Positions 27,001 through 33,000 of a stretch of 64,000 bases of DNA are shown here, piece after piece. Made by a program: the position numbers. Source of the stretch: Escherichia coli (GTDB taxonomy: Bacteria > Pseudomonadota > Gammaproteobacteria > Enterobacterales > Enterobacteriaceae); assembly GCF_045037415.1 (NCBI RefSeq), contig NZ_CP173438.1; one strand, written 5' to 3'. Each line of letters begins with the position of its first letter. Within the stretch, counting starts at the first letter, position 1.

Positions 27001-30000
27001 CAACTGATCAATACATAAATTTTGTCGGATAGCGCGGCAAAGATCTTCCACTGTTAACTTTTCAAGAGGCACATCTATGATACGTTCGAACCAGAGTTCA
27101 AGCGGTGATTGTTGCTCAGGCTCTTTTGTCATATTGATGTTTCCAATCAATTTACGTAAGGTAATCATATTCCATATCCTTTCAAGGCTGATTCTATTTT
27201 ATTAATAGCATCTGTTGCTCTGCCATACGCAGCCTGAGCTTCAGGATTGTTGACGTTTTTCAACGTATCCGCATGATTTCTTAATCCTCTGAGCGTATTT
27301 TGCATTTCCTGCATATGATCCCAATATCCTCCATTCTCTTTAGGAACTGGCTTACCATCCATATCCTTGAGAGTTCCAATAATATCATGATCTTTCAGAG
27401 CATTTTTTATAGTGTTATCGATCTTCTTAATCGCACTTTCTTGCTTCTGATTAAGCTTATCTACAGTTTTTTCATTTTGCTGCTTAGGATCATTTTCCGA
27501 TGGTGGTGGTGTACCGGTTCCTGAGCCGGAACCGCCCAGTTCTACTTTTTCCGCATCGGTCAGATCTTTACCGATATTCGGATTCGAGGCAGCCCCGGAA
27601 CCGTACTTATCATGCAACGAACTGAGATACTTAGTAGTGATCTCATCATTACCCATCATTTGCAGGGTAATCAGATGCTCCAGTTCATCGGAGGTCATCC
27701 TGTCGGCCATATCCTTGACTGCCGCCCCGGCAAGCCCGGCCATGCCCGCTTTCGCCCCGATTTCTAGCAACTGCTCTGCAACTTTAGTCCTGCAAGGTGC
27801 TGCGACCGCACAGCCTCTGGCAACCAGACTCAGCGCATTATTCTCAACAACGTTCTTCCCGGCACCAGCTCCAGCAGCCGCGCCAGCCACATCGCCACTG
27901 GCAATGCCGCCGGCCATACCCGCTGACAGCGTTGCCAGCGTGCTTACAGTTTGCTTCTGATCTTCTGTCAGTTTCGACGGATCTACGCCCGGGTAGAGGC
28001 TTTTCGCAATGGCTGACGCGATCACTTCACCAGTACCCGCACCAATTGCGCCTGCTGCCGCACTGTTGCCCTGAAGGGCTGCTGTCACACCACCGAGAAT
28101 GGCATGGGCAATGGCTTTTGCCGCTGTATTGTCATCAATACCCGCGTGATGACCGATGATGTTCGCCAGCTCCGGCGCTGAAGCACCTGCCAGCGCGCCT
28201 GCCATATTGCCGCCCACCAGGCCCTGAAGTGCAGCCGTTGCAGCCTGGATACCGCGCTGCATATCGCTGCCGGTATCACCGGTGATAAGCCCGCTGTTGC
28301 GGATGTCCGGTATATCCAGCGTCAGGTCTGCAGCACTGTACAGCGTGCCGTTCTGCTGATTATCAAGCCTCTGTGTGTTAACGGTGAGTGAGGCCTCCCC
28401 CTGCAACAGACCGCTGTTGGTCAGGGTCTGTGACTGTGTATTCAGGGCGGAAGCAACAAGTACGCCGCTGCTGGTCAGTTCCGGCGCACTGAGGCTGAGC
28501 GACGGGGCACTGCTTTTCCCGCTGTGGGTGAGCTTTTCACTGGCGTTCAGGGTAAGGATGTCTCTGGCAGCCTGTGTTCCGTCAAGCTGTGCGTTCTGCA
28601 CATCCACGCTGACACTGTTGCCTTGCGTCTGCGCAGTGGTCGTGGTCTTCAGACTGTTGCCTTTTACAGACACCGTGCCACCCGCACTGGTTTCACCCGC
28701 CAGTGTGGAAGACGCGCTGTTCAGCATGAGGTTACCGTCACTGTTTGTGACCGATTTTTCTGTGGTGGTCAGTGTGTCTGCAGAAACCACAAGTTCCTTT
28801 GCCCCGGAGAGGGTACCGCTGTTGTTTATCTGCGTGGCACTGAGCGTCAGCACGTCATCGCTGACGAGTCTGCCGCGGTTTTCGAGTGTACCGCTGACGG
28901 TAACGCGGGCACTGTCTTTTGCACCGGCATCACCGGACAGTGTGGCATTGCGGACGCTGATATCGAGTGTGCTGCCACTTTTAATACTGCCGGTGCTGGT
29001 CAGGTCAGTGGCGGTGACTTTCAGGCCGTTCCCCTGGACGGCACCGGTATTACTGAATGTCCCGGTTTTCACCGTGGCATCGCGCCCGGCAACCAGTGTC
29101 CCGCCGTTGTTCAGGCTGCCGGAACTGACGGTGAGTGTTTTCCCGGCAACGCTGCGGCCTTTCAGTGTGGTATCATCGGTGGTGGTCAAGGTGACATTTT
29201 CAGCTGCATTCACGGTCCCGGAAGTCTGGTTCAGGTGCTGTGCACTGAGCATGGCGTTCTGCCCGGCAGTCAGTTCACCACCGTTCTGTACAATCTGCCC
29301 GGATGAAGACAGCACCAGATTTTTATCCGTCACCAGACGGGACTGATTCAGTGTCAGTCCCGTTGTCCCGGTAACGCTGAGATTTCCTCCGGCTTTGTTA
29401 TCCCCTGAAAGTGAAACATTCGTTCCGGTTACGGTGGTATTGCCGCCGGCAAGGCTGTTCTTCAGGACCAGTTTCCCGGCACTGTTCAGTATGATATCGC
29501 CCTCGCGGGCATAAAGGTTACCAAGATTAACCCCGACACCACTTTCAGTGGAGGTCAGATGAATACGCCTGGCGTACATTCCACCGAGAGCGCCGGTATC
29601 AACGGCAACTTTCGGCACATCACCTTCGCCCTTCAGGGCACTGACGCGACCATCTGCAGTTATCCGGTTAGCGCCTGCAGTGACAGTTAAATCCTTCGCA
29701 TGAAGCGCGGCATTCACTTCCGTTGCACGGGCAATAATGGATACGGCATCGCTCCGGGTGCCGTCCAGGCCCGCGCCATTGATGGTGATACTGCCTTCAG
29801 TCACCTCCAGCGCCTGCAGGCTGCCGTCGGCATTCATCACAGGTTTGCCTGTGGTGAGCGTCGCGTGCGGCGTGTTGATAAAACCACAGCCGTCACAGGT
29901 GATACCATACGGGTTGGCAACCATCACATTCGCCGCTTTGCCGGCCACTTCCGTATAGCCCTGCAACAGTGAACGGTTACCGCCGGTCACTTCGTTGATG

Positions 30001-33000
30001 ATACCCTTCGCTTCCCCGCCCGCTTTCAGGTTCGGGTTATTCTGTATCAGTCCACCAAGCTGCGTCGGATTAAGCTTACCGGTGGCATTATTGAGAATCA
30101 GCCCTTCCTTCCCGACGTTGTAATCCGTAAACCGGTTATGCGAAATCCCGGCCCCGTTCGGCGTGGCAATGTTCACGACCGGCACACCATTTGCCGCTTT
30201 ATCCATTCCGGCCCCGTTTTGTGGGGTGATGACGGCCCCCACAGCCGGTAACAACGGCTGCCCGGCGATAATCGTACTGATAAGGTAACTCAGCAGGCGG
30301 TAAGTGAAGCGAACGGGAGGCTGATGCATGGTAATAATCCCTTAAAACGCGACGGCAACGCGCCAGTAAACCGTGAGATGGTCAGGGGCAAGCCAGTCCG
30401 GGTAAACAAGAGGCAGTCCGGCAGTGAACGAACCGGAAACATGGCCACTGGTGGTGCTGAGCCCGGCAGCAGCACCCCACAGCGTGCCGGACGAGTACGG
30501 GTCATCTCTGTCAGAGTGCAGCCAGCCACCGTCCAGTGCAGTCACTGCACGGACAGTTCCCACATATGGCAGGGAGAACAGAGACCAGGACAGCTCATTT
30601 CGCAGATAACCACCGTTATTACCGGAGATATACTGCTCCTTAAAGCCACGCACTGAACTCTCGCCCCCGAGGCTCAGTTGTTCCACACCATGAAGACGGT
30701 CCGGTGACCACTGGGCATAAGCGCTGGTCAGCCACCACACCCTGTCCGTGACGGGGCGCTGAAAACTGGCACTCACCGACCATTTCCGGAACTGATTTAC
30801 GGGCAGGTTTCCCCTTTTCCCGTGGTCGCTTTCTGCGCCGAACCAGGGCATCCCCCGTGTGAATACCGGATTCAGTGTTCCGACACCACCCAGAAACTTG
30901 TGTGTGTGATTCAGCCCGACAGAAAATGAAGTGAGTTTACGGCTGCTGCCCTGAAGCAGAACATCATCCAGATAATTGTGAATAATGCGGTGCTGCAGAC
31001 CTCCGGTCAGTGCTGTCTTCATGTCCCCGTTACGGAACAGGACATGCGACAGTCCCAGCCGGTGAGTCTGCAGGTCTCCCGTGGAACGCCACCGCCAGCC
31101 CCGGTTATCAATGGTGCTGAGGTAGTCACTCCATGAATACGTGTAATCCACCAGGGTATAGCCATACGGCAGACTGACACCGGCGGCAAAATTCCTCGCA
31201 TCATGTGACACCGAAAAGTCACTGCTCCGTCCCCCGCTGACAAACCAGTTGTCAGCCAGCCCCAGAGGATTATTAAAGGAAAGGACACCATTTAACTGCC
31301 CCGTACCGGTATTCTTCTGCCCGCTGTTGTCGATGCCCACGCTCCCTGTGACAGGCCATTCCGGCAATGCCGTCAGTGTCACCACCGACCATCCCTCACG
31401 GTCACCGGGCGATATTTCAATCTGTACCGGCTCCGTACGCAGACGATTAATCTGCTCCATCCCCTGCTCAATATCCCGCAGGTTCAGAACCTTTCCCTCC
31501 ATTCCCGGAAAAACCATCTTCAGGGTGCGGCCAGGAAGGTCAGCGCCTTCCGCCCGGATTTGCTGCAGCCTGCCTTCCATGACCGTTATGTGCAGTACGC
31601 CCCCTGAAAGGTCCTGCTCTGTCAGAAAGGCCCGGCTGGTGATATATCCCCGGCGTATATAGCCGTCCGTCACGGCATCCGTGACCGCGGTCAGCCCCGT
31701 GATATTCAGACACTGATTCACCCACGGTGCCACCAGTCTGTCGGTTTCTGCAGACGTCAGTCGGGTGGCCCCACTGACAACAATGCGTGACACCGTAAAG
31801 CAGGGACCTTCAGTACCGGCAGACGTTTCCGGAGACGGCGTGATGGTCAGCGGCGCACTGCGCTCCAGCGCATCACGCTGACGCTGGTTTTCATCCAACA
31901 ACTGCTGCTGTTGCTGCTGAATTGCACTGCGGTCACCCGGAGACAGCATGGCTGCCGGAGACGAAAATGAAAGAATGCAAAGGCAGGGGAGGAGGGAAAA
32001 ATAGCGTACCACCTGAGATAAGGTACGGATCCTGAATGCGTACTGACCGGAAACCATACCAGGCAACAAATTTCTGTTCGCCAGTAAGTTATCCTGCCGG
32101 TGCTGCATATTCTCCTCGTGGGGTATCCAGTGTAAATTAACGTAAGCGGAATGTCAGTGCTGAAATTTACACCAGATAAAAAACATACAGAAACAATCCT
32201 GTTATGTAAAATCCGGGGAAAATATCAGAAATGTGATCGGAGTTGTATTTTTCGGAGGGGAAATGGAAAACAAACATCCGTATGGTAAAAAGGATGCTTC
32301 CTGCGGAGTAACAATCCGGGACACAACGCAAGTTCCAGTTCAGGTGTTGTGAATTTGAGTAAAAATAATCGTAACTCTCCGGAGAACCGGAGCTTTCCCG
32401 AAGCGGCGTATTCTTATAAATGGAAATCCCTGCAGGTAATCACTCTGCCCGATAGCAGCATAATTTGCCTGTTAATCCTCATCCCCGGAGGCAAGCTCTG
32501 AAAACCACTCAGGGTGTTCACTGTATGCCACATTCAGCGCATCCCAGGAGACGTCCGCATAAAAACTGTCCCGCAATTTGCGGGTAACCACCTCTGCCAG
32601 TCGGTTCCGGTTATCCGCCTGTCCGGCATAACCTCTCTCTGCCAGCCACTCATTCAGTTCATGTCCCAGAGACAGATTGATAAAATCGTAATCGGACCTT
32701 GCCATTCCCGTTTCCTTTGCACATTTTTTTCAGACACGGGAATAAAGTATAAAAAGCGGCACTCTGCCCCTGTCAAGGTGAAATCTGCCCTTCATCGCAA
32801 TGTCAGAGATGGTATGCCGGTATTTTGCGGGTTGTTCCCGTCAGGTTATCGCTCGCTTCCACGGACGTTGTCACCACCGGCATTCCGCTCTTTCTCAGTC
32901 TCAGGATATCAGCCGCAATGCGCTGACTACCAGACCAGAACAGCCCGTCCAGTGCAGTCACCAGTAAACCGGCTTCCAGCGCATACTTCAGCCGTTCACG

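Follow-up and report, generated by a model that had tools for sequence, protein, structure and literature searches.

The closest described relative of the locus examined here is the cdiBAI system of uropathogenic Escherichia coli (UPEC) strain 536, which encodes a class II CdiA effector (PDB 5J5V, 5J43). The toxin at the C-terminus of this effector, a tRNase, has activity only in complex with CysK, which it binds through a C-terminal GYGI tail. It needs FtsH for entry into the cytoplasm, and the receptor of the full-length effector is OmpC/OmpF (PMC7690452, PMC5562914, PMC8510554). CdiA proteins are large, with a range of 180-630 kDa given in a 2022 review (PMC9086364), and roles have been assigned to the regions between the secretion and toxin ends: the receptor-binding domain contacts the receptor, surface presentation and secretion arrest depend on the tyrosine/proline-rich (YP) domain, and toxin delivery depends on FHA-2, which is needed for passage of the toxin across the outer membrane of the target cell (PMC9086364, PMC7690452, PMC8510554). 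In the window, a stretch of 64,000 nucleotides from E. coli contig NZ_CP173438.1, we examined a cdiBAI locus of this type whose cdiA has only 1054 codons, roughly one third of the full-length gene, CdiA being 3242 aa long in strain 536 and 3262 aa in strain 4/0. The short open reading frame (ORF) is almost certainly a genuine derived deletion allele. We consider it very likely that it descends from a class II (536-type, OmpC/OmpF-targeting) cdiA, that it can no longer deliver its toxin whilst the toxin/immunity pair has been kept, and that it represents early decay with clonal spread and not a new delivery system. The carrier is a sublineage of ST131, and the locus lies on an hly-cnf1 pathogenicity island.

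The short cdiA gene and its resemblance to the locus of strain 536

A first-pass annotation of the window had reported, at 27165-30329, a 1054-aa CdiA with a TPS domain and a VENN-CT toxin, far below the ~3000 aa of E. coli CdiA proteins. ORF analysis and Pfam searches confirm the gene, and the lengths of its relatives (3242 and 3262 aa) bear out the comparison. The gene is an uninterrupted frame with an ATG start, and it lies on the minus strand, a point that had been left unstated. The features of the locus are as follows.

27165..30329, minus strand: short cdiA (1054 aa, 106 kDa, WP_029701015.1), made up of residues 1-685 and 2894-3262 of intact ST131-type CdiA (3262 aa)
29466..30224, minus strand: TPS domain, residues 36-288, with the signal peptide region before it (Pfam PF05860, E 5.4e-50; TIGR01901)
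28275..29465, minus strand: remnant of the FHA-1 beta-helical filament, residues ~289-685 (no difference from the intact allele over residues 1-685)
28273..28275, minus strand: deletion junction, between gene nt 2056 and 2057, with the microhomology TA at gene nt 2055-2056 (base-by-base comparison with strain 4/0)
27849..28274, minus strand: kept C-terminal part of the pretoxin region, residues 686-827 (2894-3035 of intact CdiA)
27168..27848, minus strand: CdiA-CT of EC536 type, residues 828-1054, identical to Val3016-Ile3242 of CdiA-EC536 (PDB 5J5V chain B)
30342..32108, minus strand: cdiB, outer-membrane TpsB transporter, 588 aa, intact, 12 nt upstream of cdiA (ORF and RefSeq annotation)
26782..27168, minus strand: cdiI, encoding the cognate immunity protein (128 aa), with a 4-nt overlap between its start and the stop of cdiA (WP_000631802.1; PDB 5J5V chain C)
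26374..26751, minus strand: remnant of an IS66-family transposase at the end of the cdi locus (NF033517, E 1e-31, profile positions 302-385 of 387)

RefSeq records with 100% identity to the window over 26700-32200 name the short cdiA product WP_029701015.1 and give it the generic label 'filamentous hemagglutinin N-terminal domain-containing protein'. The cdiB product is WP_001534797.1 ('ShlB/FhaC/HecB family protein'), the same protein that stands beside the intact cdiA of strain 4/0, and Pfam matches to POTRA_2, POTRA_3 and ShlB were obtained for the same cdiB gene in two loci of the short-allele lineage (L009 and L010). CdiB, CdiI and the toxin received no name at family level from NCBIfam profiles and were identified via Pfam, PDB and RefSeq annotation.

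The CdiA features present in the short locus are the TPS domain with its adjacent cdiB, the pretoxin region with VENN, and the C-terminal toxin with cdiI. Absent from the protein are the receptor-binding domain, the YP/covarying region and the FHA-2 domain. The Pfam PT-VENN match covers residues 784-834 (E 2e-16) and starts in the kept part of the pretoxin region; the VENN motif lies at residue 828, with a C-terminal region of 227 residues, and a weak Ntox28 match covers residues 950-1025. About 400 of the ~1090 residues of FHA-1 are left. The run of FHA repeats described by the first-pass annotation stands in so far as residues 289-685 are identical to the start of intact FHA-1, but it is hardly visible to profiles: TIGR01731 at residues 640-680 (E 8e-4) is the sole, weak sign of such repeats, and a Pfam search of the short protein returned neither an FHA match nor a Fil_haemagg_2 match.

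The sequence comparisons identify the locus as cdiBAI of uropathogenic E. coli 536. All 227 residues of the CdiA-CT are matched by PDB 5J5V chain B (E 5.5e-149) and residues 1-128 of CdiI by chain C (E 1.2e-79), and the protein ends in ...ALKGYGI, identical to the crystallised toxin. Both CdiI (WP_000631802.1) and the 227-residue CdiA-CT are identical between strain 536 and the short locus. Moreover, strain 536 has the same arrangement as the window, namely dsdCXA, six small island genes, cdiB, cdiA, cdiI, the IS66 remnant, VasL and TraG remnants and a dcm-type methyltransferase. Between the intact ST131-type CdiA and CdiA-EC536, identity is 98.6% across 3242 aligned residues. Unlike CdiA-EC536, the short allele is without residues 686-2873 (536 numbering), that is, the rest of FHA-1, the receptor-binding, covarying/YP and FHA-2 regions and the start of the pretoxin region.

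A separate difference concerns the full-length proteins. The intact CdiA of strain 4/0 has 20 FHA-1 residues more than CdiA-EC536, in insertions of 2 residues (865-866) and 18 residues (893-910). This is roughly one repeat unit and is an instance of ordinary variation of repeat number within the filament.

Origin, distribution and further decay of the short allele

The short cdiA was compared by megablast with 5426 complete E. coli genomes. Nucleotides 1-2060 match the 5′ end of cdiA genes of 9.7-9.8 kb, and the remainder matches their 3′ end. The closest parent is the intact 9789-nt, 3262-codon cdiA of strain 4/0 (WP_021512800.1). Identity to this gene extends through nt 2056 and resumes at its nt 8679 to the end, an offset of 6624 nt or 2208 codons, so that strain 4/0 shows 100% nucleotide identity across the retained 3165 nt and has the 6624 nt absent from the short allele. 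Across the flanks, the two loci have a single mismatch in the 6171 nt upstream, and the 1602 nt downstream match throughout. The missing segment comprises codons 686-2893 of the intact ST131-type allele and is in frame, 6624 being divisible by 3; the internal in-frame deletion postulated by the first-pass annotation is thereby mapped against a full-length allele.

The same annotation had supposed that the receptor-binding and second repeat regions were lost, and both do fall inside 686-2893. In intact CdiA, Pfam matches to Fil_haemagg (FHA-1) extend to about residue 1379 and those to Fil_haemagg_2 (FHA-2) lie over 2042-2711. The class II receptor-binding domain, Ala1345-Trp1668 in CdiA-EC536, corresponds to residues 1365-1688 of the parent and lies within the deletion, as do the covarying region (1669-2310, 536 numbering) and the windows of intact CdiA richest in tyrosine and proline (~1626-1800). 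The computed mass is 106 kDa for the short protein against 333 kDa for the parent.

The two breakpoints have only the dinucleotide TA in common, inside an imperfect 9-nt similarity, and the same junction is seen against a second full-length locus (L001). The right breakpoint lies past the FHA-2 repeats, 142 codons upstream of VENN. From so short a microhomology and a right breakpoint outside the repeats, we infer an illegitimate recombination of the microhomology type. Recombination between repeats, which had been offered as the cause, is ruled out by this base-by-base view of the junction. A single such event at the 2-nt microhomology took 6624 nt from an intact 3262-codon parent and left an in-frame fusion of the first third of FHA-1 with the last 142 pretoxin residues and the CysK-dependent tRNase toxin, followed by cdiI.

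Two other routes to the short gene were considered and rejected. The 9788-nt cdiA of AVS0710 and AVS0501, which gives a 6623-nt difference, had prompted the idea that the deletion rescued the frame of a pseudogene that was already frameshifted. However, the 1-nt deletion in question is confined to 33 genomes, whose upstream flank has 24 mismatches in 6.2 kb relative to the window. Since the intact 4/0 allele has essentially identical flanks and the frameshifted relatives do not, the parent is taken to have been intact and the deletion to have measured 6624 nt. Exchange with an orphan cdiA-CT/cdiI module downstream was dismissed too: there is no such module, an IS66 remnant follows cdiI in intact and short loci, and the right breakpoint is intragenic. 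This remnant is annotated as 'incomplete' in RefSeq for 536, 4/0 and short-allele strains and, because it is also found downstream of intact loci, is not linked to the deletion.

The identical 5.5-kb short locus occurs as one haplotype in 53 complete genomes from many laboratories and countries. Their sources include humans, dog and wastewater, and several of the records are labelled O25b:H4-ST131. The exact 1054-aa protein is found on at least 1000 public contigs, and there are about 35 derivatives with a single substitution. Full-length alleles of this cdiA family are present in more than 600 complete genomes, which speaks for the short form being the derived one, and the same toxin-immunity module in 209 of the 5426 (UTI89 and 536 included), 53 of the 209 being the short allele. 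The 120 best protein matches comprise only the short allele, derivatives of it with point changes, frameshifts or deletions, and pieces of long CdiAs cut off at contig ends; no natural class of short CdiA is seen among these 120, which are dominated by E. coli and leave room for distant forms elsewhere. Calls of cdiA/B have been reported to vary among subgroups of ST131 clade C2 (PMC6744567). In the full-text literature on ST131 cdiA or on in-frame deletions of cdiA we found no paper describing the short allele.

Further lesions have been added to the short allele itself. In a sub-variant of 977 aa, present on at least 24 contigs (L009, L010 3001-6164), an A6 run of the toxin domain (gene nt ~2917-2922) is one A short, and the protein is without the final 79 residues of the toxin, the GYGI tail among them. 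The short allele has also given rise to two more frameshifted forms and to three additional in-frame deletions. In every variant examined, the toxin-frameshifted form included, cdiI is intact. These secondary lesions suggest relaxed constraint on the short gene.

The same locus is also broken elsewhere, by independent lesions. In 33 complete genomes a 1-nt deletion at cdiA nt 2348 (CCTTAC to CCTAC) makes the frame stop at codon 790 (L001 16311-16390; L003). In strain 98198, cdiA is cut at nt 4386 (L004 11001-15386) and joined to an unrelated gene for an 'alpha-hydroxy-acid oxidizing protein' and a fimbrial cluster; the toxin and cdiI are lost together with all that follows of the island, and the flank upstream agrees with that of the window. 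Finally, cdiB is frameshifted in Ecol_656. These inactivated alleles follow the same trend of decay in related strains, but they break the frame or remove the toxin, whereas the short allele keeps a continuous ORF from TPS domain to toxin.

Functional consequences of the deletion

Given the domains that are missing, we predict with considerable confidence that the short cdiA is null for contact-dependent inhibition (CDI). The TPS domain would still be recognised by CdiB, leading in all probability to export of the 106-kDa product, perhaps inefficiently. Because the receptor-binding, Tyr/Pro-rich secretion-arrest and FHA-2 regions are gone, the exported protein would not be poised at the surface, bind OmpC/OmpF or inject the toxin; at best it would be exported and then shed or degraded, neither binding nor intoxicating neighbours. 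The locus would be reduced to an immunity gene and an inert passenger: cdiI would protect the cell from neighbours armed with this toxin, and translation of the cdiA-cdiI overlap would continue thanks to the in-frame junction. CdiI immunity is probably retained. The first-pass annotation had left the choice between a non-functional relic that preserves the toxin/immunity pair and a short-form system with altered delivery, and the relic is much the better supported of the two.

Engineered internal deletions of CdiA-EC93 that are without central regions resemble this natural allele (Ruhe et al. 2015, 2017, 2018). Secretion of CdiA-EC93 persists when residues 722-1624 are removed and BamA binding is lost (PMC5056734), whilst truncations shorter than delta1931-3242 show poor export and fast degradation (PMC5371414). 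The engineered proteins differ from the short allele in that they were made in the class I EC93 protein, and none was found that combines loss of the receptor-binding domain, YP and FHA-2 with an in-frame PT-VENN and toxin.

Three points weigh against a delivery-dead allele under relaxed constraint. The argument for lost delivery draws on deletion constructs that were built largely in CdiA-EC93 and in chimeras. Contigs with the intact short ORF number at least 1000 and far exceed those with broken forms, which number in the tens, and selection for the open frame is possible. Moreover, the deletion behind the 977-aa form falls in an A6 homopolymer, and some instances of it may be sequencing errors. 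The predominance of the intact ORF also fits a recent clonal origin, and the in-frame outcome, with a prior of one in three, says little either way.

Selection for immunity might itself have kept the frame open, with cdiI staying translated and the costly 333-kDa surface protein dropped. The 4-nt overlap of the cdiA stop with the cdiI start would favour this, as would the intact cdiI of all variants examined; furthermore, with the same module in 209 complete genomes, including those of UTI89 and 536, encounters with its toxin are plausible. However, cdiI is also kept in the 977-aa form and in the 33 genomes that have the frameshift at nt 2348, and therefore translational coupling is evidently not essential for its retention, and a random deletion would be in frame one time in three anyway. 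We regard such selection as unlikely, and it is compatible with a delivery-dead allele and no true alternative to it.

A working short-form CDI effector, in which the mini-CdiA delivers its tRNase by an altered, receptor-independent or shorter-range route, is very improbable. It would account for the abundance of the short allele and for the TPS domain, PT-VENN, entry domain, toxin, cdiB and cdiI all being intact and in frame. Yet all the modules to which target recognition and passage through the outer membrane have been assigned in published work are missing, namely the receptor-binding region, the covarying region and FHA-2 (PMC9086364, PMC7690452), and at 106 kDa the protein falls below the range of 180-630 kDa reported for CdiA (PMC9086364). 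In addition, the whole-query protein matches listed are the same E. coli allele or its derivatives, with no sign of a conserved short class, and frameshifts that destroy the toxin are tolerated within the short-allele lineage.

No more credible is a shed, contact-independent toxin, released via CdiB, of which the CdiA-CT(EC536) or a proteolytic fragment would enter F+ cells by an F-pilus route. Such an import route into F+ cells was reportedly described for purified CdiA-CT(EC536) by Beck et al. in 2014. In the short allele the YP region for surface retention is deleted and the N-terminal entry domain of CdiA-CT(EC536) is unchanged; were the idea true, the locus would be a bacteriocin-like weapon for an IncF-rich, cdiI-immune ST131 sublineage. 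Against it, the toxin is tethered to an N-terminal part of ~85 kDa with no known release step outside the target periplasm, and toxin-null sub-variants persist in the lineage. The poor export and rapid degradation of short CdiA truncations (PMC5371414) also speak against it.

The possibility raised at the outset by the first-pass annotation, that the real gene is full length and its repeats were collapsed in assembly, has some basis in that cdiA is long and internally repetitive, short-read assemblies often break there and the protein search returned many 'partial' CdiA fragments of 1100-1700 aa, but it is effectively refuted by the 53 complete-level genomes and at least 1000 contigs with the short form, by secondary mutations already built up on it, and by breakpoints that have only 2 nt in common, the right one outside the repeat, and therefore offer no repeat to collapse on.

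The surrounding island and implications of the short allele

The window is a UPEC pathogenicity island. On the minus strand it carries cnf1 at 166-3210 (NF033651, 1953 bits), hlyD at 4156-5592, hlyB at 5611-7734 and hlyA, the RTX hemolysin, at 7805-10879 (1586 bits). At the position of hlyC is a 224-aa ORF (10891-11565, minus strand) with no NCBIfam match. Downstream of the cdi locus, 18787-24479 on the minus strand may be a restriction or defence module of three genes, for which no named system was matched in NCBIfam, PADLOC or the RefSeq annotation:

23433-24479, minus strand: Dcm-type cytosine methyltransferase (PADLOC MTase_II, E 2e-95)
20468-23428, minus strand: 986-aa ATPase, its N-terminus like restriction enzymes of the BbrUII/HgiDII type and its C-terminus like a histidine-kinase-like ATPase
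18787-20454, minus strand: 555-aa protein, 'response regulator receiver domain' in RefSeq, with no NCBIfam or PADLOC match

Between this module and cdiI lie remnants on the minus strand (24860-26751), comprising the C-terminal part of an IS66 transposase, a VasL-domain piece and an N-terminal TraG fragment with an internal stop. This scar is older than the cdiA deletion, because the same remnants are found in 536, 4/0 and short-allele strains. On the core-genome side of the island, 37294-41139 holds dsdA, dsdX and dsdC for D-serine utilisation, and a choline-utilisation cluster at 42138-51809 includes the choline trimethylamine-lyase CutC (45341-48763, 1674 bits) and alcohol and acetaldehyde dehydrogenases. 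Outside the window, strain ML35 (NZ_CP025747.1) has a 339-nt pretoxin piece (nt 2154-2492 of the short-allele gene, 96% identical) under an IS66 tnpC annotation, and this may be an orphan pretoxin fragment beside an IS66 element.

In summary, the short cdiA is real, explained and ordinary, a degenerative variant of a known cdiA. It is widespread in a clinically important clone, and its practical value is modest. Screens of virulence genes that score 'cdiA present' will count the short copy, which is very probably CDI-null. As a natural construct of TPS domain, short FHA-1, PT-VENN and toxin, it could be used to study what becomes of an exported CdiA toxin when secretion arrest, receptor binding and FHA-2 are all missing. 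Taken together, the short allele and the other lesions suggest that CDI offence is dispensable in ST131 and that immunity is kept, a familiar decay to an immunity-only state.

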